DNA of 64,000 nucleotides. Source: an uncultured Bdellovibrionales bacterium (GTDB taxonomy: Bacteria > Patescibacteriota > Minisyncoccia > Moranbacterales > DUUL01). The stretch covers positions 95,854-159,853 of the forward strand of contig CAZKWX010000001.1 of the NCBI GenBank assembly GCA_964556685.1, given 5' to 3'. Positions 28,087 to 59,223 of this stretch are shown here, piece by piece (within the stretch, counting starts at the first letter, position 1; each line of letters starts with the position of its first letter). A program made the translations under genes and the position numbers. Under the pieces are notes generated by a model. That model made no database searches, was not told the DNA's origin, and worked only from the letters and a program-made list of their open reading frames with translations.

Positions 28087-28313
28087 ATAAATATAATACT
28101 AATAACACTAATCTCATGCGAATGCCGCTAATACGCTAATAAATACAATACTAATGGATGTTACTTTATGCTAATCTTTCCTAGGTTCAATTCGCATATT
28201 CGCATCATTCGCATATCATTCGCCCGCCTGCTTTGCATGCACAGCATTGCGGGCAGGTGGATTAGTATTATACCCATTTGTACATCTGTATATCTGTACT
28301 TAATCTGTAATTA
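28087..28313. repeat. intergenic cassette between rpsM and rpsK (same family, TIRs ATAATACTAAT / ATTAGTATTAT)
   Basis: Same module order as 27304..27492. The GC hairpin is identical over 53 nt. Confidence 0.75.
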
Positions 28314-28703: not shown

Positions 28704-28856
28704 AATTATAATACTAAATGACACTAATCTCATGTGAATACCACTAATATGCTAATCTTCTGTCCGATACTTATTCGCATATTCGCGTCATTCGCATGTC
28801 ATTCGCCCGCCTGCTTTGCATGCACAGCATTGCGGGCAGGTGGATTAGTATTGCGT
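28704..28856. repeat. intergenic cassette between rpmJ and rpsM (same family)
   Basis: Left end TAATACTAAAT, internal CTAATCTCATGTGAAT, ATTCGCAT repeats, identical GC hairpin, right end GGATTAGTATT. The right end abuts the rpmJ stop. Confidence 0.75.
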
Positions 28857-28970: not shown

Positions 28971-29335
28971 AGTTGTTTACGAATTACCTGCCCGCTTTGT
29001 GTTGCTGACTGGTAATGTTTTGCTAAATGCAATTAATTATTTGGAAAAAAATAACTTAAATCTGATTATCAAAGCAAGGCAGGCGGGCTAATCAAATACC
29101 AATATACGGATCTTTCTGTCAACGTTTAATGTCTAGTCTTAGTTCTCTTGTTTCCTTTCCCCCTTTAGCAAAGGGGGGAAGGAAAATATAGGCGAGTGAA
29201 GCGAGCCATATTTTTCAGGCCTGCCCTACGAAGCTTTCCTGACCTTCGTAGTTTCAACGAAGTAGGTTAGCGAAGTAGGGGGGATTTGAATTTGTTCGTA
29301 TATTCGTACTAAATTCGTAATTCGTAGAGAACTTT

Positions 29336-29554: not shown

Positions 29555-29907
29555 AAATGTAATACTAATGATGCTAATCTCATGCAAATACCACTAATAT
29601 GCTAATAAGTACAATACTAATGATGCGAATTTATGCTAATCTACAAATATGCTAATCTTACTTAAGTTCTATTCGCATATTTGTGTCATTCGCATTCATT
29701 TGTAAATTTGTATTATACCTATTCGTATATTCGTACACAATTCGTAATTAGTAGAAAACACAAAAACAGAAGGTGTTTTAAACAGACCGGTCCGAGGTCT
29801 TGATTTCAACCCTATAACCTTCGTTAGTTACGTATGAATAAATTTTTCAAGATTAACCGCTACAATCCAGACTATATAAAAAAGCAGTAATTGTCAAGCG
29901 TTTTCGG

Positions 29908-36630: not shown

Positions 36631-36725
36631 TACTACTCCTAAACAACCACACTTACCAACCTCCCCTTCACATAAATCACTTTCTCGGGTTTTTTACCGT
36701 CCAGACTTTGGATTCTTAAATCTCT
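36631..36725 (-). repeat. degenerate copy 1 of the leuS 3' terminus
   Basis: Hand translation gives ...GKKPEKVIYVKGRLVSVVV*. The genuine LeuRS C-terminus is KKPKKVIYVKGRLVNIVT*. Confidence 0.7.
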
Positions 36726-37200
36726 CAAAAATCAAATGTGTCGAATTGCTACCGAAGGCATACTTTCGAAACAAGCTGTCTTCCAAAGATGCTAGCTCCA
36801 GATTGTTCTTTGTTTCTCCCCTAATCCATAGATTGTGACGAGTATGGTCTACTAAATAAGCTTCCGTTATCGCCCTGAATTTTCCAAAGTCAATCTTATC
36901 TGGTCTTGAATATTCTACTAACCACCAAAATGGTAGGTTATTTCCAATATCGTCGCCAACAAAATGGAGCACCGTTCTTATGATGTGTAGTTCAAAATTC
37001 TTTTTGTCTATTTTTCCATTGAATTTAGTTACGATGTTGTTCATCGCTGATTCCCAAGTACTCTTATGTGCATTAATCTTAGCCAAACCATCGAAAGCAC
37101 CTGTTGTCGTATCGCAATATTCACATTCATCTAGCTTGGTTAATTCTCCAGCAACCATCATATTCGGATTACTTTCGTTGATCTGTACAAAATATTTCAT
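36694..37200 (-). CDS. hypothetical protein located between the duplicated leuS 3'-end copies
   Basis: 168-aa ORF with no recognisable motif. Confidence 0.4.
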   Translation of the reverse strand: MKYFVQINESNPNMMVAGELTKLDECEYCDTTTGAFDGLAKINAHKSTWESAMNNIVTKFNGKIDKKNFELHIIRTVLHFVGDDIGNNLPFWWLVEYSRPDKIDFGKFRAITEAYLVDHTRHNLWIRGETKNNLELASLEDSLFRKYAFGSNSTHLIFERFKNPKSGR

Positions 37201-37243
37201 ATTTACCTTTTTGTTATTTATAAATGCTCCTTAATTTTATTAA

Positions 37244-37340
37244 TTCTTTTATACAACTACACTCACCAACCTCCCTTTTACATAAATCACCTTCTTTGGC
37301 TTCTTACTGCCTAAATATTTTTGAATTTTCTCACTTCCAA
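37244..37340 (-). repeat. degenerate copy 2 of the leuS 3' terminus
   Basis: Hand translation gives ...GSEKIQKYLGSKKPKKVIYVKGRLVSVVV*. Confidence 0.7.
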
Positions 37341-37354
37341 GGGCAACCCGCACA

Positions 37355-37382
37355 CACTCTCATATATGCATATATGAGAGTG
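37355..37382. repeat. 28-bp perfect palindrome cactctcatatatgcatatatgagagtg (second copy at 50669..50694)
   Basis: Verified base by base. It lies directly between the leuS stop and leuS-3' copy 2. Confidence 0.85.
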
Positions 37383-37388
37383 CTCGTG

Positions 37389-40300
37389 TTAAGTTACAAT
37401 GTTAACTAGCCGTCCTTTCACATAAATCACTTTCTTTGGTTTCTTTCTTCCTAAGTGTCTTTGTACTTTTTCGCTTCCCAAAGCAATCTTCTCTGCTTCT
37501 TTCTCTGAAATATCTTTTGAAACCATCACTTTATCACGCACTTTGCCATTGACCTGAATCACCAATTCAATTTCATCTTCAATTACTTTCTTGGGATCAA
37601 ACTTGGGCCATCTTTGTTCAAAGATTGAAGTATGCTTCTGGGCTTTCTTATTTTCCCCCTTTAGCAAAGGGGGTGTCCCGGCCTTGCCGGGACGGAGGAT
37701 TTGAAGTTCAGCCCAAAATTCTTCCGCTATATGAGGTGCCATTGGGGCTATAACCAATGCTAACGTCTCTTTTACCTTTTTAGCTTGAACTTTGTTAAAA
37801 TCATCTTTGTGATCCCGCATCCAGTTGACATATTCCATAATCCTCGCCACTGCTGTGTTGAAAGAAAGTTTTTCAATATCTTCTCCAACAACTTTGATTG
37901 TTTTGTCAATCATAGACATGTTCAATGGCTTTGTCTTGTTTTGTAGATGACGCAGATCTGCGTCATCTACAGACTTTGTATCGTCTGCTCCTACCTCATG
38001 AAAAACTTTCCACATTCGATTGAGGAACTTGTGCATTCCTTCAATGCCACTGTCTCGCCAGTCACCACCTTGGGCAAAGTCTCCTACAAATCGAAGATAG
38101 AGCCGTACAGTGTCAGCACCATACTTTTTGATCGCATCATCGGGGTTAACCACATTGCCTTTCGATTTGCTCATCTTAGTCCCGTCTTTGGTAATCAAAC
38201 CATGTCCAAAAAATCTCTTGTAAGGCTCGTCAAAATCAATGTAACCCAAGTCTTTCAAAACCATGGTCATGAAACGAGAATAAAGAAGATGTAAGACTGT
38301 GTGCTCCTTGCCACCAATGTAACTGTCCACCGGCAGCCATTTCTTGGTTCGCTTTCTGTCAAAAATCACCTCATTAAATTCAGTCGATGGATAGCGGAAA
38401 AAATACCAAGCGCTGTCGAGGAACGGATCCGAGACATCGGTTTCTCGCTCGGCGTCTCCTTCACAAACTGGGCATTTAACTTTGACAAACTTTTCATTTT
38501 TGGCCAAAGGCCCCTTGCCTTTCCCTTCCGGCAAAAAATCTTCCATCGGTGGTAATTTCACCGGAAGATCTTCCTCGGGAACCGAGACTGCCACTGGCTC
38601 AATACTCTCTTGGATTTTCTCTAGCAATTCTGGAAACTTCTTATTCTTTGGATTATCATCTACACAAAAATGCTTCCTGCCTTTAAGTTTTATTAATTTT
38701 GCACCCAACTTATTGCTAATCATCTCTGCACTTTCAACTCGATGAGTTTTGTCATTTGAGATAAAAATGGTCAGACTCTCAATCTGGTTTTTCAAACTCG
38801 AGTCAATTTTAAAATCAACAAAGCCTTTTATTCGCTCTTCTCTCTTAACTAATTTTTTAGATGGAGCATTTAAAATAACATTTCTAGCTTTTCTCCCTGT
38901 TTCTGATAGCCATTTTAATATAAAAGCTCCTCCGGCACTTGTTCCAACTAAAATTGTATCTTCATCAACATCAAAATTATCAATAGTTTCTTTCCAGTCT
39001 TCATAGTCCGGCTTCCAGTCTGTCGGCATAATTGGATTTATAACTTCAAATCCGTTCTTTTTCAGCTCTTTTTCAAGCCAGCTATGCCAATGTCGAACAT
39101 TCGGTTCAACATAATCTTTGTCGTGAGCTTTCGTCCGACCTGAAGAACCATGGATCATTAAAACTTTAATCCTTTTCAGCCCCTCCTTTTTCCTCCCCTT
39201 ACTAAGGGGAGGATTTAGGTGGGGTCCAAGCGCACAGCGCTTGCACCAGACAATCGGAATCGGCGGCCCCCAATATCTTTGCCGTGAAATGCACCAGTCA
39301 CGTAATTTGTAATTAACCGTCCATTTTCCATTTCCCTTTTCGACAGAAAAATCACCAATTGCTTTTCGAGCTTTCTTGGTTGGCATATCATCGAATTTCC
39401 CAGCATTCATCATCAGTCCCTCATTAACATAAGCCTTTTTCATTTTCTTTGGATCAAGCTTCTTTTCTCCCTTGGGATAAATCACGGGCACCAAATCTAG
39501 CTTATATTTTTTGGCAAACTCAAAATCTCTTTGATCGTGAGTGGGAGTGCACTTTACAATTCCCGTGCCATATTCATAGACAGCGAAATTAGCAGTATAA
39601 ATTGGCATTTCCCGGCCATTGAGATGATTGATCGCATACCGACCTGTAAAAAATCCTTCTTTCTTCTTTTCGACGTTGGCTGGGTCTTTGACTTTTTCTT
39701 CAATCACCTTCCGGCAGAAATCTTTGGCTCCTTTTTCATATTTTGTGCCTTGGACTAATTCATCAACAACAGGATGTTCTGGAGCAACAACCATAAAAGT
39801 AGCTCCCCAAGTGGTGTGTGGCCAGGTGGTAAAAGTTTTCAATTTTAATTTTATATCTTTGACTTTCCATTCTTCTTCCAAACCTTTACTTTTTCCAATC
39901 CAATTCCTCTGATTGGTTTTCACATCATCCGGCCAGTCGATCCAATCTAAATTCTTTAATAGCTGATCGGCATATTTAGTAATAGCAAAAAACCATTGCT
40001 TTAATTCTTTTTTCTCAACAACGCTGTCGCAGCGTTCGCACTTTCCTGCAATCACCTGTTCATCAGACAAAACTGTTTTACATGAAGGACACCAGTTCAC
40101 CTTGGCTTCTTTTTGATAGGCTAGTCCCTTCTTGAACATCTGCAGAAAAATCCATTGAGTCCACTTATAATAATTCGGTTTGTAAGTCTCCACTGTCCGC
40201 GACCAATCATACATGTTTCCGATTTCATGCAATTGCCGATAGAAATTTTTCTCACTCCTTTTAGAAACATCGCTAATGTGTTCGCCAATTTTCATGGCAT

Positions 40301-40583
40301 AGTTCTCACTGTGAATGCCAAATCCATCCAAACCAATCGGCTCAAAAACGTCATAGCCTTCTAACTTCTTGAAACGCCCATAGACATCGGCTCCGGTGAA
40401 GGCATACATGTTCCCCACATGCAATCCTTCTGCGGAGGGATAGGGGAACATCATCAGATTGTGAAATGGCTTCTTGGCTTTGTCCAAATCGGGTCGAAAA
40501 ACACCTGAGTCTTTCCAGGATTTTTGCCATTTTTTTTCGATAGATTTGAAATTATATTTCGGAATTGGTTGCTTTTTTGTCAT
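37389..40583 (-). CDS. leuS: leucine--tRNA ligase with inserted alpha/beta-hydrolase domain
   Basis: HIGH-type motif (GLHVGNMYAF), KMSKSKGN, and the CP1/editing and anticodon domains. It is 1064 aa, longer than typical bacterial LeuRS. About 210 extra residues sit between ...VWCKRC and VSVPEEDLPVKLP. Confidence 0.9.
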   Translation of the reverse strand: MTKKQPIPKYNFKSIEKKWQKSWKDSGVFRPDLDKAKKPFHNLMMFPYPSAEGLHVGNMYAFTGADVYGRFKKLEGYDVFEPIGLDGFGIHSENYAMKIGEHISDVSKRSEKNFYRQLHEIGNMYDWSRTVETYKPNYYKWTQWIFLQMFKKGLAYQKEAKVNWCPSCKTVLSDEQVIAGKCERCDSVVEKKELKQWFFAITKYADQLLKNLDWIDWPDDVKTNQRNWIGKSKGLEEEWKVKDIKLKLKTFTTWPHTTWGATFMVVAPEHPVVDELVQGTKYEKGAKDFCRKVIEEKVKDPANVEKKKEGFFTGRYAINHLNGREMPIYTANFAVYEYGTGIVKCTPTHDQRDFEFAKKYKLDLVPVIYPKGEKKLDPKKMKKAYVNEGLMMNAGKFDDMPTKKARKAIGDFSVEKGNGKWTVNYKLRDWCISRQRYWGPPIPIVWCKRCALGPHLNPPLSKGRKKEGLKRIKVLMIHGSSGRTKAHDKDYVEPNVRHWHSWLEKELKKNGFEVINPIMPTDWKPDYEDWKETIDNFDVDEDTILVGTSAGGAFILKWLSETGRKARNVILNAPSKKLVKREERIKGFVDFKIDSSLKNQIESLTIFISNDKTHRVESAEMISNKLGAKLIKLKGRKHFCVDDNPKNKKFPELLEKIQESIEPVAVSVPEEDLPVKLPPMEDFLPEGKGKGPLAKNEKFVKVKCPVCEGDAERETDVSDPFLDSAWYFFRYPSTEFNEVIFDRKRTKKWLPVDSYIGGKEHTVLHLLYSRFMTMVLKDLGYIDFDEPYKRFFGHGLITKDGTKMSKSKGNVVNPDDAIKKYGADTVRLYLRFVGDFAQGGDWRDSGIEGMHKFLNRMWKVFHEVGADDTKSVDDADLRHLQNKTKPLNMSMIDKTIKVVGEDIEKLSFNTAVARIMEYVNWMRDHKDDFNKVQAKKVKETLALVIAPMAPHIAEEFWAELQILRPGKAGTPPLLKGENKKAQKHTSIFEQRWPKFDPKKVIEDEIELVIQVNGKVRDKVMVSKDISEKEAEKIALGSEKVQRHLGRKKPKKVIYVKGRLVNIVT

Positions 40584-40700
40584 GTTTATGTCAATAATTA
40601 TTGCAGTTCATTAAATAGACAAATTAATTTTAGCTTATAAAAAGCATTTTTTCAAGGTATCTTAAATTATCATCAATCTACCTAATGAAAGGAGGTCGCA

Positions 40701-41090
40701 ATGTCTTGGGAATTAATTCGTATAACTAAGCTAAAAGAAATACTCGATGGGGATATCTTTGTTCTGGGAGTCCCTAGAGATTTCACTGATAAAGATTTTG
40801 AAAAACTCGTTCTCTTTTTGGAAAGTGAAGAGGGCCTAGACCAGGTTAAGCATCTCGCATTACGACTGGTCATGAACATTGAAGTGAGCGGCGATGATGA
40901 AGACAAAAGATATCAATTGGCATGTGGACCCGTTCCCGGCTTTACAGTCTTCGCTCAATACTTTGTCAGTGCAACTAGGACAAGGCCTTCATCTCGTAGA
41001 TTCAAATGGAGTTTCCACGGATTCCGCAAAGTCGCCGGGATAATAAGAAAAGTGATTGAAGATGTTTCTGGCAATGATGTTTCCTTTTAA
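40701..41090 (+). CDS. hypothetical protein
   Basis: SD GAAAGGAGGT precedes the ATG. 129 aa. Confidence 0.45.
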   Translation: MSWELIRITKLKEILDGDIFVLGVPRDFTDKDFEKLVLFLESEEGLDQVKHLALRLVMNIEVSGDDEDKRYQLACGPVPGFTVFAQYFVSATRTRPSSRRFKWSFHGFRKVAGIIRKVIEDVSGNDVSF

Positions 41091-41105
41091 AAAGAGGAGA
41101 TTGAC

Positions 41106-41402
41106 ATGATAAAGACCGTAAGTGCGAGCTACTTAGAGAAAGAACATCTGGCCAGGGGAAATCTGTTGCTATTCGTGTTAAAAGAAGGAGTGGCTTTTAA
41201 TGATTCAGGGCTCCAAGAAACCTGTCCAAACCGAGAAGCCATCATCCAAGTTTGTTTCTTTCCAGGCGGAGCAATCCTCGTTCGTACTGAATCGCTCCTC
41301 AATGACTACCATATCTTCCAGCCTTTTGAAGATCGATTCTGCATTTTGAAAACTAATGAAAAATCAGGTCTTTTCAGAGGAATTGGACTTGGATTGGTAT
41401 AA
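41106..41402 (+). CDS. hypothetical protein
   Basis: SD AAGAGGAG precedes the ATG. 98 aa. Confidence 0.45.
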   Translation: MIKTVSASYLEKEHLARGNLLLFVLKEGVAFNDSGLQETCPNREAIIQVCFFPGGAILVRTESLLNDYHIFQPFEDRFCILKTNEKSGLFRGIGLGLV

Positions 41403-41520
41403 TAAAGACAAAAGGGGCTCGAAATCACTTTTTACATACCGCGGCTTTATTAAAAGTCGCGGTTCATCTTTTTTTGGGAATATGCTATAATTTAACAAAG
41501 AAGATTCTCTTCTCAGGTTT

Positions 41521-41640
41521 ATTTGCTTCCCTTGGTGCAAGGGGAGATTAAGAGGGGTTAGCTTGAATAGCAATAGAGACCGGCCAATTCACTTAACTCC
41601 CCTTAGTCCCCTCTTTCCAAAAGAGGGGAAATGAATAAGT
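41521..41640. repeat. short copy of the multi-hairpin element family
   Basis: cttcccttggtgcaaggggag...gaggggttagcttgaatagcaatagagaccggccaattcacttaactcccc...cccctctttccaaaagaggggaaa. It aligns to 17341..17500 with the central gaattc hairpin deleted. Confidence 0.7.
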
Positions 41641-41676
41641 TTCTTGTAGTTTAAAGTAATCTATAATTCTCCTCTG

Positions 41677-42039
41677 ATGCTTCGTAAATTCCTCATCCTA
41701 CCCATAATTGTATTTTTATTCATCGCTTTCTTTCAGCTGTCACTGAGAGATTATTTATATTTCGCTCTCTGGTTTTTTGTGGCTGCAATAATGGCCTTCA
41801 CTTTGGCACCCGTCATTATCAAAGACGTCAACGACAAACACGTGCCCGTGATGCATATCTTTATCACTTTTGCTCTGATCATCCTCATTGGAGCAGTGAT
41901 TGTGTTTGCTGATTTGATTCGTTCGGATTTCTCCAGTGAAATGATTGCCTTCTTCACTATTGTTGGTGGCCTGGCCATTACTGGAATAATCATGCTTATC
42001 AAAGGCAAGGAAGGAAAAGGCAGTAAACCGTGGACATAA
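41677..42039 (+). CDS. small integral membrane protein (3-4 TM)
   Basis: Hydrophobic 120-aa ORF. Confidence 0.4.
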   Translation: MLRKFLILPIIVFLFIAFFQLSLRDYLYFALWFFVAAIMAFTLAPVIIKDVNDKHVPVMHIFITFALIILIGAVIVFADLIRSDFSSEMIAFFTIVGGLAITGIIMLIKGKEGKGSKPWT

Positions 42040-42147
42040 TAAAAAACCCCTGAAAAATACGGCTCGCTATACTTGCCCGTATTTTTCTTCCCCCTTTATA
42101 AAGAGGGACACAGAGGGTTTTTATCAATCGAGATTGTTAATTTTCTT

Positions 42148-42900
42148 CTACCACTTCCAAACTGCCCAAGCCGCAAATTCTGCTGGCTTTTTTTGTTCTC
42201 CTACCATTCGAACTATCTTGAATGATCCTGGTGTGTTTTGAGCTTTAACCTGAGTTTTCGAAATTGGATTCTTATCCACGACAAACACAATCCAATTTTT
42301 TCCTTCCCAATTTTCAAGATAAAACATTTTCTTACTTGCTTGAGCAGTCACCACTCCCGATAATGTTCCCTTCTCCGGTTGAGACCAATATTCTTTTGAA
42401 GTGACAATAATCATGTCATATCCTTTTTGATTTTCGAGCAGGCTCATGACACCACGATCAAGCCGGGCATAAGAAGCTACTACTCCTATCACCAACGCTC
42501 CAAAAACGATCACCCCCAAAAGCATCCACTCCTCATGCTGACAAAGACGGCGACTTTTTCGATATGATCGAGCCGCTAGATAGATAAAAAGAATTGTCAA
42601 ACCAATCAGAAAATAGGGAAGTGACCCAAAGAATAATCCCGGCTTTTGTGCCGCCATGACACCCATTTGAAAATTCCCGATATAGGTGGTTGAAGCGCTG
42701 ATCAAAAAAACTGTCAGAACAAAAAACATCCCTGCCAATGTCAACCAAGCTAAAGATTTGAATGCAAAAAAACAACGAGGCTTCATCTTGACCTCTTCTT
42801 TTTTAATTTCTTCATAAACCTTTCCGCTGATTTTTTCTTTGTTGCTCATTTGAGTTTCGGTATATAAAATATTAGATGTTGCGGGTCGCGATGCTGGCAT
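42148..42900 (-). CDS. membrane protein downstream of the ECF sigma factor (putative anti-sigma factor)
   Basis: The position immediately 3' of the sigma gene and TM segments after a short cytoplasmic N-terminus. The start is uncertain (alternative Met at 42852). Confidence 0.4.
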   Translation of the reverse strand: MPASRPATSNILYTETQMSNKEKISGKVYEEIKKEEVKMKPRCFFAFKSLAWLTLAGMFFVLTVFLISASTTYIGNFQMGVMAAQKPGLFFGSLPYFLIGLTILFIYLAARSYRKSRRLCQHEEWMLLGVIVFGALVIGVVASYARLDRGVMSLLENQKGYDMIIVTSKEYWSQPEKGTLSGVVTAQASKKMFYLENWEGKNWIVFVVDKNPISKTQVKAQNTPGSFKIVRMVGEQKKPAEFAAWAVWKW

Positions 42901-43495
42901 CGATTCCCTGCTGTGTCAACTGTTTCTTCAAAACTTTCTTGGCTCGGTTGAGCAGTGTGCCTACTGTTCCAATTGGTTTTTTCAAAATGTCAGCAATTTC
43001 CTGATAGCTCTTCCCTTCCAAATAGTTCAAAACTAAAACAGTCCTATATTTCTCGTCGATTTCTTCAATTGCTTTTTTGACTTGCTCATTGGTGATCTTT
43101 TGATAGACTCCCTGTTCAGTATCATAATCATCTTTGATAATATTCTTCAGCGCTTCATTGTCATCCCAAGAAACATTGTTGGCTGTCTTTTTTTTATTAC
43201 GGCGCCAGTAATTGATTGTTTCATTGTGGGCAATTCGATAGAGCCATGAGGAAAATTTCAAATCGGTGTCAAAAGAGTTGAGATTGATGTAAACTTTCAA
43301 GAAAACTTCCTGCACAATGTCCGCCGCCGTTTCTTCATCCACGCCACTAATCCGGCGCACGTAGCGCATCATTTTGTCATCATAGCGTTCCATCAGGCAG
43401 ACATAGCAATCCTTTTTGTTTTTCACGAAAGTGACCAATTCTTCATCGGTCTTGTTGGGACAATCATTCAGATTGGGACAATCCATTATTGGCAT
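42872..43495 (-). CDS. RNA polymerase sigma-70 factor, ECF subfamily
   Basis: Region 2 (DIVQEVFLKVY, WLYRIAHNETINYWRR) and region 4 (SYQEIADILKKPIGTVGTLLNRAKKVL). Confidence 0.75.
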   Translation of the reverse strand: MPIMDCPNLNDCPNKTDEELVTFVKNKKDCYVCLMERYDDKMMRYVRRISGVDEETAADIVQEVFLKVYINLNSFDTDLKFSSWLYRIAHNETINYWRRNKKKTANNVSWDDNEALKNIIKDDYDTEQGVYQKITNEQVKKAIEEIDEKYRTVLVLNYLEGKSYQEIADILKKPIGTVGTLLNRAKKVLKKQLTQQGIDASIATRNI

Positions 43496-44537
43496 TTTTG
43501 CTATTATTTTTATTAAGCCTGAAAAGGCGAAACCCACCGAAGCTACGCTTTTTTATACTGTTAATTTGCAAATGCCTTCATATTTATAAGGCAAAAGCTT
43601 TTTTGTATAATTCTGCGAAGATGGGCGCCCTCGTCAAGTGTTATTCCTTTGATACTATCAATCAGGTCAATGCAGAATAGCACACTACTTGACTTTTTTC
43701 CAGTATTTTGGTTGACTAAGGGTGTTCCATCTTGTTCCTCTTTCCTCCTGAGTGGGTTCGGTTCCCAGATACTGAGCCCGCTCTACACAAAAAACTTCTC
43801 TGAATTAGGGAAGTCAGTATATGCCCCGTTAAGTCCCGCGGTAAGAAACTTAGTCATTCACCGCCATTGACTTCTCGGGGTTTTTTATTTGACATCCACA
43901 CAAAACCTTCCCTGCAACTAAAACATTCCATCTCTATACTTTGATATATTGATATATTGATATATCAAAGTGAACAATGGATAATCTAAAATTTTTGAAG
44001 CTTTTGGAATGTGCCCCAATAAACTCTACTGCGCAAAGACAATTCTACTTGTGACTGCATCACGGATTTTACGGAGCTTTTTGTTTGACAATTTTTACAA
44101 AACCTTCAATACTTAATGGTAACTGTTCTTTGTCCCTGCTCCGGAGTTTACGGCAAGGATGTTCGTAGTCTAAAAGACTATAGATGGACATCACGGCAAT
44201 GCCGTCTTTGTCCAGCGTCATTCGTGCAGACCGAATCTCTGGGCAAAGAACAGTCCAAAAAAACTTTAAAATCTTCGGGCCCAACCAGGCCCTTTTTGTT
44301 TTCCTAATCATTATTTTAAACAAATAATGATTTTCTACTAACAACAGAATCACATTCTGTTTCTCAACACATCCCACTTCAGTATATTGTAGTGTTACTT
44401 GATTGCTGTTGTGAATAACACCTATTTTTGGCTTTTTGATTTTGGAAACTGCTACTTTAAAAAAACAAATACCCGATAGACAAAATCGGGATTTTATTCA
44501 GCAATAATTCTTTCGTCGGCTTTAACCTTCTATAAAA

Positions 44538-45938
44538 TCAGCAACAATATAGCTTATCTGGAATTTCATCGTCCGACTTCTCGCCAAATGGATTATTGTG
44601 TTTTTTTATATTTTTTAACATCTCTTTGTTCGACTCAGTTTGCATTCCTTTTTTCTCCTGCTCTGCACGAATCATTCGAACATAATATGGTAGTTTAATT
44701 CCCATGGGACAATTCCGGTGACAGACTCCGCAGAAGGTACAAGAAAAACTACCGGCGTCTTTGGCCCTTCTCAGCATTTCATTATCTAGATCACGACTTG
44801 CATCGTTCGCACCCTTCCGCGCCAATCCGCGTTCAGTCTGCGCGGATCCGCGCGCTCCATCCTCTTGGAGCGATAGATTGGCTGTCATGATGATTCCTTT
44901 TGATCCAGCAAATTTTCCGCCATATTTTTTGCCCATTTGATGATAGACTGGACAAAAATTGACGCAGGCTCCACAATTGATGCAACGCACCATTTCATCG
45001 AATCCTTTCTTGACCATTTCCCTTCTTCCATTGTCCACCAATATTAGATGCACTTCTTTGGCCCCCTGAGCTCCCTCCACTAGTTGATTTTCAATATCAG
45101 CTGTTTTTGATGGTCCAGAAACAACTGAAATATACTGAGCACAATCTTGACCAGTTCCAAAAACTGCCGCTACTCGACAAAGTTGAGTTGCATCTTCAAT
45201 AGTTTCAACCAATTTATCGATTCCACAAATTACGATGTGCTTCTCAGGAATACGCGAAACCAGAGAAATGTTTCCTTCATTTTCTAACAACACAACTTGT
45301 CCCGTCTGCGTGAAAAAATTCGCCCCGGTGATTCCCGTGTCTGCTTGTAAAATATTAGCTCTTATTTTTTTACAAAGATAGCGAGTGAGTTTTTTTGGAT
45401 CAGCTTTCACTTCATCTCCATAGACTTCTTTAATCCTTTCAGCAATTTGTTTACTATTCAAATGAAGCGCTGGCAACACATAATGTTGATCTTCTTCTTC
45501 CATCAAATTCACCACGAAGTCTCCTAGATCCGTTTCAAAATTATCCTGCCCCATTTTTTCTAGTAATTTTTCAACGCCAATTTCCTTCCCCATGTTTGAT
45601 TTAGACTTTACGATCTTATCTGTATCTTTAGAGGTACCTTTTTCCGCCCAAGGCGGACCAGCCTTTGGCTGGAAGATTTTTTTTAGTAAATTTCGTGCTT
45701 CACCTGCGTCTCTAACTTCAGAAACTTTAAACCCATGTTTTTGCAGATTTTCTTTCGCTTCTTTTAAGTTTTTTTCAAAGTTATCACCAAAAACTTTTTT
45801 TCTGATTTTTTTCACTTCGTTCCGATATTCATCTTTTGTCACGCCCAAATCTTCCAGCGTCCGAATGCGCTTTTTTCCGTAGTTGTAAACTACTTTCTTG
45901 ATTGATTGTTTGGTTTTATCGTCTAAAAATCTTGACAT
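44538..45938 (-). CDS. LutB-like iron-sulfur protein (LUD/DUF162 domain + 2x[4Fe-4S] ferredoxin motifs)
   Basis: CINCGACVNFCPVY and CTFCGVCHRNCPMG Cys clusters plus an N-terminal LUD-type domain. Confidence 0.65.
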   Translation of the reverse strand: MSRFLDDKTKQSIKKVVYNYGKKRIRTLEDLGVTKDEYRNEVKKIRKKVFGDNFEKNLKEAKENLQKHGFKVSEVRDAGEARNLLKKIFQPKAGPPWAEKGTSKDTDKIVKSKSNMGKEIGVEKLLEKMGQDNFETDLGDFVVNLMEEEDQHYVLPALHLNSKQIAERIKEVYGDEVKADPKKLTRYLCKKIRANILQADTGITGANFFTQTGQVVLLENEGNISLVSRIPEKHIVICGIDKLVETIEDATQLCRVAAVFGTGQDCAQYISVVSGPSKTADIENQLVEGAQGAKEVHLILVDNGRREMVKKGFDEMVRCINCGACVNFCPVYHQMGKKYGGKFAGSKGIIMTANLSLQEDGARGSAQTERGLARKGANDASRDLDNEMLRRAKDAGSFSCTFCGVCHRNCPMGIKLPYYVRMIRAEQEKKGMQTESNKEMLKNIKKHNNPFGEKSDDEIPDKLYCC

Positions 45939-45991
45939 GTTTTATAATACTAATCCGCGAATCTTATACGAATCTACAAATATGCCAATGT

Positions 45992-46396
45992 TTATTCCTT
46001 AGCATATGAGTTGATCACGCGTTTTGGAATTAGGTATTTTTGATGAAAATTGATAAGCAATCCTAATTTCTTATTTGAGAATCTTAAGTATCTTTTTATT
46101 TGGTTGTAATCTTCTCTGACGAATCCTCTTTTTGCTTTCACTTCCAGAATAATTTGGTCTTCTATAATAAAATCTATTCTATTACTATTGTTTTTGATAT
46201 ATTCACTTTCCGTCTCGACTATTACTTCTTTTTCGTAGAACATCCCTTTTTCAATGAGAAGTTTTTCCAAGGCATCACAATATTGTTTTTCCCGACAATA
46301 GTTGCCTAATTCATTGTGAACCTCAAAAAGCATGCCTGTTATTTCGTATGACAATTCTGGATAAATTATTTTTCCTTCGTTATCTTTGATTCGCAC
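45992..46396 (-). CDS. GxxExxY-family protein (PD-(D/E)XK nuclease-like)
   Basis: SYEITGMLFEVHNELGNYCREKQYCDAL matches the GxxExxY signature. Confidence 0.6.
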   Translation of the reverse strand: MRIKDNEGKIIYPELSYEITGMLFEVHNELGNYCREKQYCDALEKLLIEKGMFYEKEVIVETESEYIKNNSNRIDFIIEDQIILEVKAKRGFVREDYNQIKRYLRFSNKKLGLLINFHQKYLIPKRVINSYAKE

Positions 46397-46429
46397 ATTT
46401 GCAGATTAGCATTTATTTGTAGATTCGTA

Positions 46430-47140
46430 TTATAATCTCATATATTTATTCCAATAATCATATAACTCCCTCGTCGACACCAAGTCTCGCGCATTGTAGC
46501 GAGCGATGTCGAGATGTTTTCCTTCCCCAAAAAGCCGAGTTACGTCATCACCATTGATCCCCTCTTCTTTGGGACTTTTGATTCCGAAAGCTCGGCAACA
46601 CAAATGTAAATTTGTTCGTCCCCAAACTGCTCCATAGAAATTGAGTTGATCCATCAGATCAACGTGCTTTGAATCGCGTGGTTGCAAATTTAAATAGCGA
46701 TTGGCCATCAGATTCTTGCTCGGTCGAATCTTGTGAATAGCACTGCGAATCATCAAATAGGGTACATCGAACCCTCTCCCATTGAAACTGACAAATTCTT
46801 CTGCCTTCTCCGCCACCTTCCAAAAACTTTCTAGAATTTCTTTTTCGCCCATCGGTTTGAACTTGATTCCTTCTTCTTCAAACTCCTTGGCATCATCGGC
46901 TAAATTCTGGTGATAGACTGCGCCTTTCTTGGTGTCAGCGTCCAGAACTCCCACCGCGACAATTTCGCCTGTCAGCGGTGAAAAAACCAGCTCATTTTTG
47001 ATTTTCTCCAATTCTTCGTCAAATTTTTCTCCCGGCTCATCACCAACTCTGATTTTTTTGGTCAGCACTTTTTGGGTGACTTCGTCCATCTGGTCATAGT
47101 CTTCCCCAATTGTTTCAATGTCGAAAATAATTTTTGGCAT
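46430..47140 (-). CDS. DEDDy-type 3'-5' exonuclease (PolB-exonuclease-like)
   Basis: Exo I FDIET, Exo II FNGRGFDVPYL, Exo III YNARDL. Confidence 0.65.
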   Translation of the reverse strand: MPKIIFDIETIGEDYDQMDEVTQKVLTKKIRVGDEPGEKFDEELEKIKNELVFSPLTGEIVAVGVLDADTKKGAVYHQNLADDAKEFEEEGIKFKPMGEKEILESFWKVAEKAEEFVSFNGRGFDVPYLMIRSAIHKIRPSKNLMANRYLNLQPRDSKHVDLMDQLNFYGAVWGRTNLHLCCRAFGIKSPKEEGINGDDVTRLFGEGKHLDIARYNARDLVSTRELYDYWNKYMRL

Positions 47141-47241
47141 AGTTGTGTCTTAATAATTTATTATTATTATGATATAAATATTAGTTTTATAGAAGACAAA
47201 TACTTAACATATTCTAGTTTATTCCAAAAGGAGGTTGTCTT

Positions 47242-47745
47242 ATGAATTCGTTCTTTCAAGACCGAAAAGGTTATGAACTTTTTCTCAGGAGACTAGTTAA
47301 TTGTAAATTGAACGGCTATCCATCCAAGAATAGTACCTACAGCAAATTGCCTGATGGATCAAAACGATTCTGGGTCCAAGTAGGCAATGTCATGTTTACA
47401 GACTATTACTGGGGATCTAATCCCTTCTTCGGAGTCGAGGCCGCTTATATCGACGATAGTCATAATACTGTCTTAGTTTGGTCAATGTCATACTGTGGAC
47501 AGTGTTATTACACTCATTCAGAGCAAGTCGAATTTGTGTTTAGCTTTTTAAAATCAGCATTAAAAGAAGTTTCTTCAAGCACGCCCTATCGAGGGCCCCT
47601 CAGTTTTGCAAGAAATGACGGATTGTTGTTTTATGAATGTAAATGGTGGAAATCAACCGGGAATATGCTCCACGGAATGGAAATCATCCGGGATTATCGT
47701 GGAAATGTAGTATATCAATTAACTTTCCACGCTCCTCTCCTGTAA
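47242..47745 (+). CDS. hypothetical protein
   Basis: 167-aa ORF. It is the only plus-strand gene in this block. Confidence 0.35.
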   Translation: MNSFFQDRKGYELFLRRLVNCKLNGYPSKNSTYSKLPDGSKRFWVQVGNVMFTDYYWGSNPFFGVEAAYIDDSHNTVLVWSMSYCGQCYYTHSEQVEFVFSFLKSALKEVSSSTPYRGPLSFARNDGLLFYECKWWKSTGNMLHGMEIIRDYRGNVVYQLTFHAPLL

Positions 47746-47820
47746 TCAACTTCCAACCTATATTTAGAACTCTGCCATCAAAGGCCTTAAATATCAATAA
47801 AAGGCCTTTTTTGTTCCATA

Positions 47821-48345
47821 TCAAATCAATCGCAGCTTTTTAGAAATGATTTTATAATCAGGTATGGCTCTAGCAGTTAATTCCCAAAAAAAATTCGAAT
47901 GATTCATTTCTTTCAAATGACACATTTCATGCACCACCAGGTAGTTAGCCAGCTCATCTTCCAGCCACACAATCCGCCAATTGAAATTCAGATTTCCTTT
48001 CTTACTGCAACTTCCCCAGCGAGTTTTTTGATTGCGGATGGAAATGCGATTTATTCGAAAATTATAATACTGATTAAACCTATTGATCTTATTTTCAATC
48101 AATCTTCGTGCTTTCTCTTTATTATCCAAATAATCTTGCCTGGTTCCTTTTTTGAGTAAACTGTCGCTTTTTCTGGCTTTCATCTTGGCCACATTCTTTT
48201 CAATCCAATTTCGTTTTTGCTGAGTAAACTTCTCTGCTTGCTTTCGATTTGACCACCAGGGATAGGTCACCAAAACTTTTCCGTCTTCTCCAACAGAAAT
48301 TCTGATTCGCTTGTTTCTCTTATTGCGCCTGATTATGATTTGCAT
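47821..48345 (-). CDS. YgjP/DUF45-family zinc metallohydrolase (HExxH)
   Basis: HEMCHL motif and the family-typical C-terminus. The start was moved to the internal MQIIIRR because the ORF-track N-terminus is encoded by a hairpin repeat. Confidence 0.6.
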   Translation of the reverse strand: MQIIIRRNKRNKRIRISVGEDGKVLVTYPWWSNRKQAEKFTQQKRNWIEKNVAKMKARKSDSLLKKGTRQDYLDNKEKARRLIENKINRFNQYYNFRINRISIRNQKTRWGSCSKKGNLNFNWRIVWLEDELANYLVVHEMCHLKEMNHSNFFWELTARAIPDYKIISKKLRLI

Positions 48346-48557
48346 TCCTTCTTTATTTCCCCCTTTAGCAAAGGGGGAAGAAGAATTGAGACGAATCATG
48401 TTACCGAAAGGTAACGTGATGAGTCCAATTCTTCAGGGGGATTTGAATTTATAGTACTGAAAATCCCTCTGAAAAATATGGCTTATTACATTCGCCTATA
48501 TTTTCCTTCTCCCTTTTTCAAAGGAAGAAACACAATTAAATTCATGATTCGTAAAAC

Positions 48558-49307
48558 CTACACATCAAACAACTCACTCAACTCCATCACCTTGATCCCG
48601 CCATTGTTCCTCTTCAAATGCATATAGCACATAGGACAGCTGGTGATCAAGACATCCGCTCCAGTCATTTTGGCTTGCCCAATTCGGTCCTTGGCAATCT
48701 TGTTGGAAAGTTCGGGATCATTGGAACTCACTCCGCCACCACCGCCACAACAAAAACTCTTCTCGCCATGCAAATCCAGCTCGACTAATTGATAGCCTGC
48801 TTTTTTGATAATTTCCCTTGGTTGATCATAGATGCCCAAATGTCTCCCGAGGTGACAAGGATCATGATAGGTAGCGGCAACCTTTTCTCCCCCTGCCCGA
48901 GGGGGAGATTCAGAGGGGGTGGGAGTTTTTAACTTAGTTTTTGCCTTGTCAATTATTTCCGCCACATGTCTTGCTTCGATTCTCCATTCATCTCCAAGAA
49001 TCTTCGGATATTCTTTTTTGAACATCAATGTGCAAGCCGGACAATTGCTGATCACTCTGGTGACATTGTGTTGCCTGAAAATTTTGAAGTTTTCCTTGGC
49101 CAATCGTTCATATTCTTCAATTGCTCCCGCATTTTTCACCGGTGAACCACAACAAAATTCTTTGTCTTTGAGCAACAAAAAATCAACTCCCTCGGCCTCC
49201 AGGATTTTCCGATAACGCTCCAGCATCCCTTCTCCAGCAAATTTTGTCAGACAGCCGGGATAATAGAGCGTGTTTCCGCTTTTAAAAATGTTATCTAAAA
49301 AGCTCAT
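48558..49307 (-). CDS. LutA-like (Fe-S) oxidoreductase with two CCG cysteine-rich domains
   Basis: CCGSPV...NCPAC and HDPCH...CCGGGGG...CPMC motifs. Confidence 0.65.
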   Translation of the reverse strand: MSFLDNIFKSGNTLYYPGCLTKFAGEGMLERYRKILEAEGVDFLLLKDKEFCCGSPVKNAGAIEEYERLAKENFKIFRQHNVTRVISNCPACTLMFKKEYPKILGDEWRIEARHVAEIIDKAKTKLKTPTPSESPPRAGGEKVAATYHDPCHLGRHLGIYDQPREIIKKAGYQLVELDLHGEKSFCCGGGGGVSSNDPELSNKIAKDRIGQAKMTGADVLITSCPMCYMHLKRNNGGIKVMELSELFDV

Positions 49308-49394
49308 TGTGCTTCTAGTATAGTACCCGAAATCTCATTTAACAAGTTTCAATAAAAAAGTTACAATTAAAACAAGTAGTAGTGTTGCGAGACA

Positions 49395-50918
49395 ATGCAG
49401 AAACTCAACCAATATAAAATCTATCTATTTTATCTCTTCCTTTTCCTCATTCCGTTCAATTTGCGGATAATTTTTAATTTCGATCGAATCAACAATCTCG
49501 AAGGTTTTCGCGAACACATCACACACTCTTTCTACGCATTCGATTTGATTTTTATTCTGTTATTGCTAGTTGTTCTGCTTGATTGGCTGCAGAATAAACG
49601 ACCAAAGACTTCAACATCAAAAAAGATTTTCACTAACCCCCTTTTCTATTTCGTTATAACGACCGTTATAACGTCGGTTTTGGCCCTCAACCAGACAGTG
49701 GCTTTCCAACAAACTTTGAGGATCGCACAAGCAGTCGTTTTCTTTTTGATAGCTAATAGCATTCTTTCAAGTTCCCCCTCTTGGGGCAAAAGTGGAGAAT
49801 TGCGAATGAGTAATTCTCGGGGAGTTAAGAAACCCGGATGGGATTCAAAACCATTTTATATTTCAATCTTAATAATTTTTCTTAGTGGAACTCTCCAATC
49901 ACTTATTGCTCTTTGCCAGTTCATTTTTCAAAAATCAGTCGGACTGAAAATTCTGGGGGAAAGCGTCATTGCACCAGAAATTTTGGGCGTGGCTAAATTT
50001 GAAATCCTGGGAGAAAAACTGATCCGCGCTTATGGCACTTTTCCTCATCCCAATCTTTTAGCTGCGTTTTTGTTACTGTCGTTGGCCTGTGGAGCTTTCT
50101 TGTTGATTTATAAAAAATCTTCTCCCTTTTACAAGAAAAAATATAAATATGTCAGCGATCTGCTTTCCAAAAATTATTTCTATACAATTGGAACTGTAAT
50201 GATTTTATTCGGTGTCTGCCTGACCTATTCTCGCAGTGTAATCTTGGCTACTGTCGTTTTTATTATTTTATTGTGGATTGGACATCGCAAAAAAGTAGGC
50301 GATGTCTATCGAGGCTGGTGCAAACAACTGCGTATTCATTCTATTTTCCAAACAGCCTTAGCAGTGTTGGCAATTTTTGCAGTTACTTTTTTACTTTATA
50401 ATATTTTTGCTCCCCGTCTTTGTTTTTCTAATTGTTTTAATGACAATTCCATTGAACTGCGAGGAAGATATAGCGCTGCCGCAGCAGAAATTATTGTTCA
50501 AAATCCACTCACCGGAGTGGGACCAGGAAATTTTGTCATTGCCCTAGCTGATTCTTCTGTCGGTGCAACGCTTCAACCTTGGGAATTTCAGCCAGTTCAT
50601 AATTTGTATCTGCTCATTGCTTCAGAAATCGGTCTCGTCGGCCTGGTATTTCTCCTAATCTTTGTTTCCACTCTCATATATGCATATATGAGAGTAAAGT
50701 TGGGGCGCACTTTGAATCTGCAATCATTGGTTGGAAATCCTTTTTTTATTTTACTTTTGGCTTTCCTTTTTCTGGGATTAATTGATCATTATTTCTGGAC
50801 TCTTCCTCAAGGACTACTCATCTTTTGGCTTAGCCTTGCGTTTTTTGATATGTCCAGTAAGATAAAAGTTGAACCCAAACAGAGGAGGTCACATGCCCTA
50901 CGTACCGAAATATACTAG
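49395..50918 (+). CDS. O-antigen ligase/polymerase-like integral membrane protein
   Basis: About 12 TM helices with a periplasmic-loop YSRSVILAT motif typical of the Wzy_C/O-antigen ligase family. Confidence 0.5.
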   Translation: MQKLNQYKIYLFYLFLFLIPFNLRIIFNFDRINNLEGFREHITHSFYAFDLIFILLLLVVLLDWLQNKRPKTSTSKKIFTNPLFYFVITTVITSVLALNQTVAFQQTLRIAQAVVFFLIANSILSSSPSWGKSGELRMSNSRGVKKPGWDSKPFYISILIIFLSGTLQSLIALCQFIFQKSVGLKILGESVIAPEILGVAKFEILGEKLIRAYGTFPHPNLLAAFLLLSLACGAFLLIYKKSSPFYKKKYKYVSDLLSKNYFYTIGTVMILFGVCLTYSRSVILATVVFIILLWIGHRKKVGDVYRGWCKQLRIHSIFQTALAVLAIFAVTFLLYNIFAPRLCFSNCFNDNSIELRGRYSAAAAEIIVQNPLTGVGPGNFVIALADSSVGATLQPWEFQPVHNLYLLIASEIGLVGLVFLLIFVSTLIYAYMRVKLGRTLNLQSLVGNPFFILLLAFLFLGLIDHYFWTLPQGLLIFWLSLAFFDMSSKIKVEPKQRRSHALRTEIY

Positions 50919-59172: not shown

Positions 59173-59223
59173 GTTTTTGAGAATTCACGAATTAATTCGT
59201 GAATTAAATATATAAAATATAAT

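Follow-up and report, generated by a model that had tools for sequence, protein, structure and literature searches.

Here, we analysed a 64-kb stretch of contig CAZKWX010000001.1 (64,000 nt, GenBank assembly GCA_964556685.1; hereafter the window) in which short, mostly GC-rich hairpin repeats lie between genes and, without breaking the frame, inside conserved genes such as those for LeuS and a LutB-like protein. We propose, with a probability of roughly two in three, that these repeats are a family of small non-autonomous hairpin modules that landed in genes and survive in frame in tolerant regions of the encoded proteins. The grounds for this proposal are observed: the inserts are identical to a repeat family, are absent from orthologues and lie in loops or linkers, one pair of copies represents a filled and an empty state of nesting, coding sequence holds fewer copies than its share of the window, and other phyla have copies in frame as well. 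Beyond these observations, we infer active transposition of the modules. A first-pass annotation of the same DNA had noticed several of the inserts and likened them to Rickettsia palindromic elements (RPE). Its observation is confirmed, as all sequences it quoted lie where it had placed them, inside the named open reading frames (ORFs) and with the frames unbroken. The RPE-like reading is supported, as an analogy of behaviour that does not extend to family membership. The window has a GC content of ~0.40. Its best LeuS homologues are 55-66% identical and are labelled Patescibacteria or Moranbacteria by their sources, and we read the host as a member of the Patescibacteria (candidate phyla radiation, CPR) near the Moranbacteria.

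Structure and distribution of the repeats

Perfect GC-rich hairpins with stems of at least 6 number 12 in the window, compared with 0-6 in 20 first-order Markov shuffles that preserved dinucleotide frequencies. The core unit consists, in this order, of a C-box, a spacer, the H1 hairpin (CCCCCTTTAGCAAAGGGGG), a second spacer and a G-box (GGGGGATTT). Composite elements are assembled from H1 (TTTCCCCCTTTAGCAAAGGGGG), H2 (AAGGAAAATATAGGCGA..AGCCATATTTTTCAGG), H3 (CCTGCCCTACGAAG..CTTCGTAGGG), which sometimes encloses GTCCCG..CGGGAC, and the G-box GGGGGGATTTGAA. Single modules measure 19-60 nt and intragenic inserts 39-99 nt, while nested composites alone reach 130-185 bp. Self-BLAST and alignment showed that most inserts have near-identical cores of 19-32 nt in common with this nested, mosaic intergenic repeat; H1, for instance, is identical at 22 of 22 positions in the copies starting at 29156, 37652 and 48356 (29156-29177, 48356-48377). 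A covariance model (R1), trained solely on copies from other phyla (see below), recovers the window copies at 29146, 48340, LeuS site 2, 11744, LeuS site 1, 17343, 41593 and 42077. The features are collected in Table 1.

The window holds 21 copies, 12 intergenic and 9 intragenic (43%), and all host ORFs are intact. Because 79% of the window is coding, copies are depleted in coding sequence (binomial p = 4e-4). Both orientations occur, between as well as within genes. The GC-rich inserts have a GC content of 0.54-0.67, compared with 0.38-0.43 in the remainder of each host gene, and their fold z-scores against all same-length windows of the same gene range from -2.3 to -5.2, several inserts being the most stable window of their gene. 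The first-pass description of all inserts as GC-rich applies to these, but not to a 28-bp palindrome that it had placed in the same family. With a GC content of 0.29-0.36, this palindrome is AT-rich and belongs to a separate class of long perfect palindromes.

The LutA insert and the intergenic element at 23905-24021 form the filled/empty pair. They match at 30 of 32 positions (23986-24017) and 16 of 16 positions (23910-23925), and, apart from a precise 60-nt module that the intergenic copy carries in its hairpin loop, run collinearly; this nested module has homologues at 29215-29285 (29220-29263) and elsewhere. The junction shows no consistent target-site duplication beyond a possible CCTGCC microhomology.

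Mis-assembly, chimeric reads or over-extended ORF calls would be a highly improbable source of these patterns. The window does derive from a metagenome-assembled genome, its exact LeuS product is absent from the public gene index, and the N-terminal extension of the YgjP-like protein hinges on the choice of start codon. However, over 41600-48385, a range that includes both LutB inserts, the window is matched at 100% identity by three Logan assemblies made independently from the same strain; the LutB product is found on 5 contigs (one of them an NCBI record) and the LutA product on 4. Conserved protein sequence flanks every insert on both sides with the frames intact (LeuS, LutB, LutA and Wzy_C alignments), and the same phenomenon is seen on a 698-kb contig of Chromatium okenii LaCa. 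H1 copies mark the exact ends of the Logan contigs (41600, 48385), the pattern that a multi-copy repeat is expected to give.

Two readings of the family were tried and rejected. A link of copy orientation to a replication origin or strand bias was set aside, as the window is too short for it and GC skew tracks the gene strand. Descent from a tRNA T-arm (GGGGGATTTGAA is the reverse complement of TTCAAATCCCCC) was dropped because the GAA behind the G-box is not conserved across phyla. A CCCC..GGGG hairpin (9718-9731) precedes a glmS-like start codon (MCGIVG...) by 17 nt, and its 3' arm merges into a GGAG Shine-Dalgarno-like sequence, so that some intergenic copies may overlap translation-initiation regions.

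In-frame inserts in conserved genes

Orthologue sets were aligned for LeuS (n=16), the LutB-like protein (n=11) and Wzy_C (n=14); the nearest relative available has ~76% amino-acid identity. The peptides of both LeuS sites are missing from all 16 orthologues (55-66% identical). Site 1 has a GC content of 0.56, compared with 0.40 in the gene, and a fold z of -4.2; it is identical to the intergenic copy 17342-17366 at 24 of 25 positions and matches R1 positions 1-51 (E = 5.5e-4). Site 2 adds 22 residues between the consecutive residues 798/799 of Neisseria gonorrhoeae LeuRS (6q89), at the boundary of the anticodon-binding and C-terminal domains, and a relative (P0002) has a different hairpin insert at this site.

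The LutB-like protein (466 aa, compared with 418-423 aa in relatives) carries two inserts. Insert 2 (34 aa) is missing from 10 of the 11 orthologues, and in the remaining one an unrelated insert occupies this position; the AlphaFold model, with a predicted local distance difference test (pLDDT) score below 50 for residues 312-437, is too poor to place it. In a variable linker, the LutA-like protein exceeds most orthologues by ~10 aa; some are as long or longer there. AlphaFold models its insert as a coil with the lowest internal pLDDT. In the LutA of another relative (P0125), an insert is formed by a CCAGCCTTTGGCTG hairpin like one in the window LutB. Structure mapping, which had been suggested as a check, placed LeuS site 2 at a domain boundary and the LutA insert in a low-confidence coil.

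Further inserts that the first-pass annotation had missed are LutB insert 1, an insert in Wzy_C that corresponds to a gap of 24-25 aa in all 14 orthologues, an H3-type module in the N-terminal extension of S11, and a GTCCCG..CGGGAC hairpin in the C-terminal tail of L17. In the YgjP-like gene, the left end of the doublet at 48340-48530 overlaps the N-terminal codons SSSPFAKGGNKEG, or the 5' untranslated region if M19 is the start. The claim of a hairpin-encoded N-terminal extension is correct in that an H1 copy overlaps this region, but the N-terminus is as long as that of the orthologue. As this H1 copy is the outer end of an intergenic doublet, it represents either a replaced N-terminus or 5' untranslated region.

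Orthologues without the repeats had been named as the test of whether the peptides are insertions or ancestral sequence. The insertion reading came through this comparison because the LeuS and LutB peptides are missing from the orthologues; it stands for both LeuS sites and the LutB-like protein, while LutA and the Wzy_C palindrome show only loops of variable length and YgjP is ambiguous. The claim that the inserts derive from the intergenic hairpin family is borne out for most of them, but not for the LutB hairpins at 44811-44875 within insert 2, for which no second copy was detected in the window or in any of the fetched loci.

LeuS has further features. A whole Ser_hydrolase domain (PF06821, alpha/beta-hydrolase) follows the CxxC knuckle of the catalytic core at 38630-39180 (residues ~470-650). 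Among Patescibacteria LeuS homologues, many contain Ser_hydrolase, some also a NUDIX domain (PF00293) in the editing region, and others neither. About 100 nt of the LeuS 3' end are present in three tandem copies within 36635-37520, namely the true end (37392-37486), 37250-37346 and 36655-36736. The second copy encodes an intact, consensus-like C-terminus (VALGSEKIQKYLGSKKPKKVIYVKGRLVSVVV*), a 168-aa ORF without a Pfam match lies between the second and third, and the 28-bp palindrome is located at the junction of the first and second. These repeats look like the result of serial integration, each event bringing a replacement end. In the syntenic relative L004 (GCA_034658815.1), H3-like palindromes flank LeuS. 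The same 20-bp perfect palindrome (CCTGCCTGCCGGCAGGCAGG) is found to either side of the gene in CCTGCC-rich arrays (L004:9783-9802, 13218-13237, 13267-13286), and L004 also has a AGTCCCGAGTACTCGGGACT palindrome related to the inner hairpin of window H3.

Copies of the core unit in other phyla

The exact H1 19-mer (CCCCCTTTAGCAAAGGGGG) occurs in at least 125 places in GTDB species representatives, where ~4 would be expected by chance in 596 Gb. The sources among the matches listed include Desulfobacterota, Nitrospirota, Chloroflexota, Acidobacteriota, Gammaproteobacteria, Ignavibacteria, Zixibacteria, Elusimicrobia and others. Of the 125 matches listed, 98 (78%) are followed at a distance of 3-6 nt by GGGGGATT, the G-box, and 69 are preceded by AATCCCCC. 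The cross-phylum consensus is AATCCCCCC-N4-CCCCCCTTTAGCAAAGGGGGG-N4-GGGGGGATTT, which translates as NPPxPPLAKGGxGGF. An extra hairpin is found between H1 and the G-box in ~12 of the 125 copies listed, as it is in LeuS site 2, the Wzy_C insert and 48359-48447, and doublets of the order H1, G-box, spacer, C-box, H1 are numerous.

In other phyla, in-frame copies occur in Pfam-supported genes for a GlcD/F-like fusion, a UvrD/AddA-like helicase, Mfd, a P-type ATPase, an FAD oxidoreductase and a methyltransferase. The GlnRS of Chromatium okenii LaCa (L026:803-2623, NZ_PPGH01000035.1) contains an in-frame array of hairpin units, with ~50 extra residues (..KSPQPPLLKGEEEEKPPFEKGGLGGF..) between residues 368/374 of P. 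aeruginosa GlnRS (5bnz), at the boundary of the catalytic and anticodon-binding domains. The first-pass annotation had seen the signature of RPE in an unrelated small-genome lineage; it is indeed present in Patescibacteria, but the case of C. okenii extends it beyond small genomes.

Phages were considered as the main carrier and rejected, as the exact H1 occurs only 4 times in viral contigs, twice with a G-box. A BLAST search of the 50-nt consensus against plasmids gave no match, for which low-complexity masking is possibly responsible. The searchable literature (DNA strings, peptides, CPR palindromes) held no description of the element, which does not prove it undescribed. We tentatively raise the possibility of a cross-phylum, undescribed class of ~50-nt nested-hairpin elements, C6-N4-C6TTTNNNAAAG6-N4-G6ATTT, with a Pro/Gly "NPPxPPLxKGGxGGF" loop cassette, that could be proliferating into hairpin loops and into coding loops and linkers in ten or more bacterial phyla, with Patescibacteria, Chromatium, Nitrospirota, Desulfobacterota and Dehalococcoidia among the carriers. 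If such a class exists, its mobilisation mechanism would be host-independent or universally available, and it would constitute a general, unnoticed route to new surface loops, including those of aminoacyl-tRNA synthetases.

Long perfect palindromes

The second class in the window comprises long perfect palindromes that are near-loopless (loop <= 2). With arms of at least 10 nt there are 16, compared with 3.7 per 64 kb in a control of 840 kb from other bacterial loci, and with arms of at least 12 nt there are 12, compared with ~0.9. Among the 24-34-bp perfect loopless palindromes, eight lie just outside gene ends and six inside genes (LeuS 37942-37971; Wzy_C 50669-50695; ValS 52334-52365, 53074-53107 and 53448-53473; 61686-61705). 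Several of the intragenic ones fall where the window proteins have residues that orthologues and solved structures lack. In Wzy_C, the palindrome encodes YAYMRVK within a variable loop; there, the window protein exceeds 11 of the 14 orthologues by 7-9 aa and is shorter than the other three. Some palindromes have cores in common, GAGATATCTC in three at gene ends and CGCAGATCTGCG in the intragenic 37942 and 53448. The 24-bp core previously reported to be common to the Wzy_C gene and the intergenic 28-bp palindrome is present, but the match is longer, 27 nt (37355-37381 = 50669-50695). Joint Genome Institute (JGI) metagenomes contain a 26-bp core of this palindrome in three additional, unrelated settings between genes, 5-13 nt upstream of start codons, so that it is either a dispersed element or a maintained motif. 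The class as a whole may be mobile, may consist of template-switch products or may represent binding sites.

A rival reading is a local origin of the hairpins by template switching, quasi-palindrome correction or slippage in variable linkers, with the likeness between loci being due to convergence on C-run/G-run hairpins. Many of the long palindromes are unique in the window and perfectly symmetric. Symmetry is retained through changes on both arms in a 34-bp perfect variant of the 28-bp palindrome, carried by one of the JGI contigs; in ValS 52334-52365, just the distal portion of one arm has no counterpart in the orthologue; and palindrome 7693 has a local 14-nt direct repeat (TTGATACGAGTTAT) on its flanks. 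The lack of a second copy of LutB insert 2 points in the same direction. In a 2026 survey, perfect inverted repeats were reported to be denser in CPR phyla than in any other (PMC13155455), and in Nematomorpha mitochondria, whose coding palindromes are kept as perfect repeats, template switching has been discussed as the mechanism (PMC6649704). We nevertheless consider a local origin of the family unlikely. The identities between distant loci (22/22, 30/32 and 27/27 nt) make convergence impossible, the 26-bp palindrome recurs in unrelated contexts, the H1 and G-box architecture, including its spacer length, is common to more than 100 loci in other phyla, and the filled/empty pair differs by a discrete module with homologues elsewhere.

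Function in place and proposed mechanism

The repeats might instead be functional cis-elements that are selected in place, for example as terminators or attenuators, mRNA-stabilising or processing hairpins, operators or pause sites, with adaptive copies in coding sequence. Intergenic copies are mostly located directly downstream of gene 3' ends or near start codons, and the 26-bp palindrome precedes start codons in all three metagenomic contexts. Intragenic copies are found at domain junctions (LeuS core/hydrolase and anticodon-binding/C-terminal, between LutB Fe-S motifs, between LutA CCG domains), and the exact conservation of H1 across phyla hints at constraint. Domain junctions, however, are also simply the most insertion-tolerant sites, copies occur in both orientations between and within genes and are depleted in coding sequence, and orthologues do not need the inserts to function. 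A-rich or G-box sequence rather than a T-tract comes after the H1 units, which are not called in a terminator scan that found ordinary hairpin-plus-T-run terminators elsewhere in the window, so that a role as intrinsic terminators is not supported. At Rfam 15 gathering scores, only three tRNAs were found in the window, and the composite element gave only sub-threshold chance hairpin matches. Taken together, selection in place appears to us quite improbable.

The filled/empty pair, the landing in spacers, the depletion in coding sequence, and the absence of a transposase from the window and of terminator or Rfam matches favour small non-autonomous hairpin elements. Other modules (H2, H3, GTCCCG..CGGGAC) are nested in the loop of the core unit or in the spacer between H1 and G-box, and thereby build up the 130-185-bp mosaic intergenic elements. 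According to this model, copies or sub-modules would also land in genes of the gene-dense genome, where those with a length that is a multiple of three, a stop-free frame and a tolerant site would survive; H1 itself has two of three frames open on each strand. Tolerant sites would be inter-domain linkers, variable surface loops and terminal tails, and the inserts would be translated as flexible Pro/Gly/Lys-rich peptides of the PPLxKGG type. The modules would thus represent selfish or neutral DNA under a purifying-selection filter, as proposed for RPE. Because insertions go into hairpin loops or spacers, with no target-site duplication apparent, the mobiliser could be a trans-acting HUH/Y1 enzyme (RAYT or IS200/IS605 TnpA-like) that acts on hairpins in single-stranded DNA.

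Several points weigh against the proposal that the repeats are such mobile modules. Its main weaknesses include the small 64-kb sample, in which no transposase, RAYT or Y1 gene was found and no target-site duplications or clear termini could be defined. No recurrent neighbour gene that could be a candidate mobiliser was present in 120 cross-phylum loci, where nothing but widespread families, ABC transporters and sensor kinases for example, appeared. A DNA-level empty site was seen for none of the intragenic copies because the closest available relative has only ~76% amino-acid identity. Among single copies, LutB insert 2 stands alone in the searched loci, the LutA copy is not significant with R1 (E = 0.5) and the YgjP copy may be non-coding, and translation of the inserts is assumed from the intact reading frames. 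Finally, purely neutral selfish DNA would hardly be expected to keep a 19-mer exactly conserved across phyla; this conservation may indicate a function or mechanism beyond those considered here.

Neighbouring genes and other repeats

A search for related loci in genome contigs with LutB as the only query found no relatives; syntenic relatives were reached through LeuS homologues. L004 shares the gene order ValS, Wzy_C, YgjP, RNase-H-like exonuclease, sigma factor and LeuS with the window. In L004:5177-7513, which corresponds to window 44538-49307, the LutA-like, LutB-like, PDDEXK_3 (45992-46396) and DUF5680 (47242-47745) genes are lacking, indicating gene-level indels in the same neighbourhood. 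In another relative (L005:15208-21159), a Cas12a (Cpf1)-type CRISPR-Cas system with Cas4, Cas1 and Cas2 adjoins LeuS.

The window also contains longer repeats. At 19807-23287, a 921-aa DUF11-containing protein and the next ORF, which look like a repetitive surface protein, harbour diverged internal DNA repeats of ~100 nt (families D1, D2 and D5). The spacers of the S13-S11-S4 operon, at ~190-230 nt unusually long for a normally compact operon, each carry an 80-nt repeat (ATTCGCATATTCGCATCATTCGC...GCCCGCCTGCTTTGCATGCACAGCATTGCGGGCAGG; 27410-27489, 28190-28269 and 28773-28852; 93-98% identical), and ATTCGTA-rich 45-nt repeats are present at 26624-26668, 29282-29326 and 29709-29753.

Table 1. Host genes, GC-rich repeat copies and long perfect palindromes in the window
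Feature	Position	Strand	Evidence and remarks
LeuS, 1064 aa, inserted Ser_hydrolase domain	37389-40583	-	Homologues and precomputed Pfam domains, orthologue alignment
LutB-like, LUD + 4Fe-4S	44538-45938	-	Homologue comparison
YgjP-like protein	47821-48399	-	Pfam on syntenic orthologue
LutA-like CCG-domain Fe-S protein	48558-49307	-	Pfam PF02754 on homologues, alignment
Wzy_C / O-antigen-ligase-like membrane protein	49395-50918	+	Pfam Wzy_C on syntenic orthologue, alignments
ValS	51220-53952	+	
LeuS site 1, full nested unit (outer C/G runs, inner hairpin CCTCCCCTTACTAAGGGGAGG), encodes GPHLNPPLSKGRKKEG	39176-39228	-	Junction of LeuS core and inserted hydrolase domain
LeuS site 2, exact H1 TTTCCCCCTTTAGCAAAGGGGG, nested H3-type hairpin GTCCCGGCCTTGCCGGGAC, G-box GGAGGATTTGAA, encodes QILRPGKAGTPPLLKGE	37652-37705	-	R1 E = 1e-5
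LutB insert 1, adjacent hairpins TCCGCCCAAGGCGGA + CCAGCCTTTGGCTGG (45643-45672), encodes 14 aa QPKAGPPWAEKGTS	45630-45671	-	Missing from 11/11 orthologues
LutB insert 2, 99-nt GC-rich multi-hairpin segment, encodes SLQEDGARGSAQTERGLARKGANDASRDLDNEM	44775-44873	-	Between two Fe-S motifs; GC 0.58 vs 0.38, z = -3.6
LutA insert, hairpin CTCCCCCTGCCCGAGGGGGAG, spacer ATTCA, G-run GAGGGGGTGGGAG, encodes TPTPSESPPRAGGE	48883-48930	-	"Empty" form of 23905-24021
Wzy_C insert, H1-like hairpin CCCCCTCTTGGGG, nested hairpin GGAGAATT..AATTCTCC, G-run, encodes SPSWGKSGELRMSNSRGVKKPGWDS...	49773-49862	+	
S11 N-terminal extension (86 aa), H3-type hairpin module, encodes DPTSPRQNGATKGADA	28012-28059	-	Pfam S11 domain covers residues 87-196 only; GC 0.67 vs 0.41, z = -3.1
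L17 C-terminal tail, hairpin GTCCCG..CGGGAC, encodes GSTSSRKSGTSKS	25043-25081	-	Pfam L17 ends at residue 119; 84% identity to 11679-11710; z = -3.9
Full composite intergenic element, H1+H2+H3+G-box GGGGGGATTTGAA	29146-29290	+	R1 E = 1.2e-7, DNA fold z = -4.8
Second full composite intergenic element	11660-11780	-	78 nt at 85% identity to 29156-29233; R1 E = 9e-5 (match at 11744)
Inverted doublet of units	48340-48530	.	H1 48359-48377, hairpin + G-box 48436-48447, spacer, C-box 48461-48469, H2, degenerate H1 48497-48527; R1 E = 5e-7
"Filled" intergenic element downstream of S9 gene	23905-24021	+	LutA element with 60-nt H3-type module in hairpin loop
Partial intergenic copies	9718, 14417-14561, 17343-17490, 19555-19587, 23905-24021, 41593-41643, 42049-42123		
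28-bp perfect palindrome, intergenic	37355-37382	.	6 nt past LeuS stop codon, junction with relic copy of LeuS 3' end
Palindrome in Wzy_C, encodes (S)TLIYAYMRV	50669-50695	+	27/27 identical to 37355-37381
30-bp perfect palindrome in LeuS, encodes VDDADLRHLQ	37942-37971	-	Window ~13 aa longer than 15/16 orthologues here
32-bp palindrome (15-nt arms, 2-nt loop) in ValS, encodes KLSFLGNLAS	52334-52365	+	Flanked by orthologue gaps of 5 and 6 aa; 19-aa gap vs T. thermophilus ValRS 1gax
34-bp perfect palindrome in ValS, encodes EVSPRVLAVKP	53074-53107	+	13-aa gap in syntenic orthologue; 16-aa gap vs 1gax
Unique 24-32-bp perfect loopless palindromes outside gene ends	1418-1449, 7693-7716, 11529-11556, 18230-18255, 23624-23651, 59182-59205		

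Comparison with known systems

In-frame, protein-coding palindromes have hitherto been viewed as a curiosity of Rickettsia and are now seen in unrelated Patescibacteria, where they affect core machinery (LeuS, ValS, S11, L17) in addition to LutAB-like and Wzy-like proteins. RPE-1 to RPE-10 are interspersed palindromic repeats located between genes and in frame in unrelated, often essential genes (Ogata 2000/2002 via PMC10969869, PMC1779305), with units of 100-150 bp, an occurrence in Rickettsiales only and a conserved peptide of its own for each family (PMC1779305, PMC10969869). The window repeats resemble them in being intergenic as well as in frame in essential genes, including those for aminoacyl-tRNA synthetases, in being missing from orthologues and placed at fold-compatible positions, in having no known transposase, and in residing in a small, AT-rich genome. 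Unlike RPE, the window modules are 19-60 nt long, nested, GC-rich relative to the host and encode Pro/Gly-rich peptides, and their core is common to many phyla. Compared by description, unit size and lineage set the window repeats apart, and they are not RPE; similarity to RPE in sequence would not be expected.

Repetitive extragenic palindromic sequences (REP) and their doublets (REPIN) are extragenic by definition and tied to the RAYT (Y1/HUH) transposase of each species (PMC3116915). The window repeats share with them the short, GC-rich, imperfect palindromes of ~20-35 nt, the occurrence as singlets and as inverted doublets forming long hairpins (48340-48530), the clusters through mutual insertion, the lack of an evident target-site duplication and the non-autonomous nature. 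However, 9 of the 21 window copies are intragenic and so fall outside the extragenic definition, the 19-mer is common to many phyla, and no RAYT is encoded in the 64 kb examined. Very small nested hairpin repeats without a transposase are also a feature of the small dispersed repeats (SDRs) of heterocyst-forming cyanobacteria, a likeness that goes by description. SDRs, reported by Elhai et al. in 2008, are said to be mobile, hairpin-forming repeats of 21-27 nt, often nested and with no associated transposase, and are reportedly confined to this one cyanobacterial group. They are not known to reside systematically in frame within conserved proteins.

Yeast mitochondria harbour mobile GC clusters in an AT-rich genome. 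Mitochondrial palindromes are likewise GC-rich or perfect and scattered in a compact, AT-rich genome, protein-coding genes included, and among the systems compared they come closest to the long perfect palindromes of the LeuS, ValS and Wzy_C genes. The bypassed elements of Magnusiomyces are not translated, and the coding palindromes of Nematomorpha cover conserved regions on both arms and reach 284 bp (PMC6649704). In both settings, the perfect arms suggest active maintenance or copying by way of hairpins. The window palindromes differ in that they are not organellar, are 24-34 bp long and encode mostly lineage-specific extra residues.

Should the family prove mobile, bacterial proteins would have in it a widespread source of Pro/Gly-rich loop insertions. 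It would then also confound gene calling, alignment-based phylogenomics of CPR and assembly, as contigs break at copies, and would offer a tractable system for the movement of very small hairpin DNAs without an obvious transposase. In-frame fusion of small repeats with host ORFs is in itself of a known kind (PMC3184786). ERIC, BOX and other MITEs (miniature transposable elements with inverted repeats) fuse in this way, internally or terminally, but are 100-250 bp long with terminal inverted repeats and often target-site duplications, and are lineage-specific (PMC3184786, PMC10969869). The window repeats are comparable as small, non-autonomous, open-frame repeats fused to protein genes, for example in the S11 and L17 extensions. 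They differ from MITEs in that their units are several-fold smaller and terminal inverted repeats or duplications are not definable. Inverted doublets do occur, and the 64 kb contain no insertion sequence. What is new here is the lineage, the very small nested GC-rich modules that code for Pro/Gly-rich peptides, and the identity of the core across phyla together with its in-frame copies.

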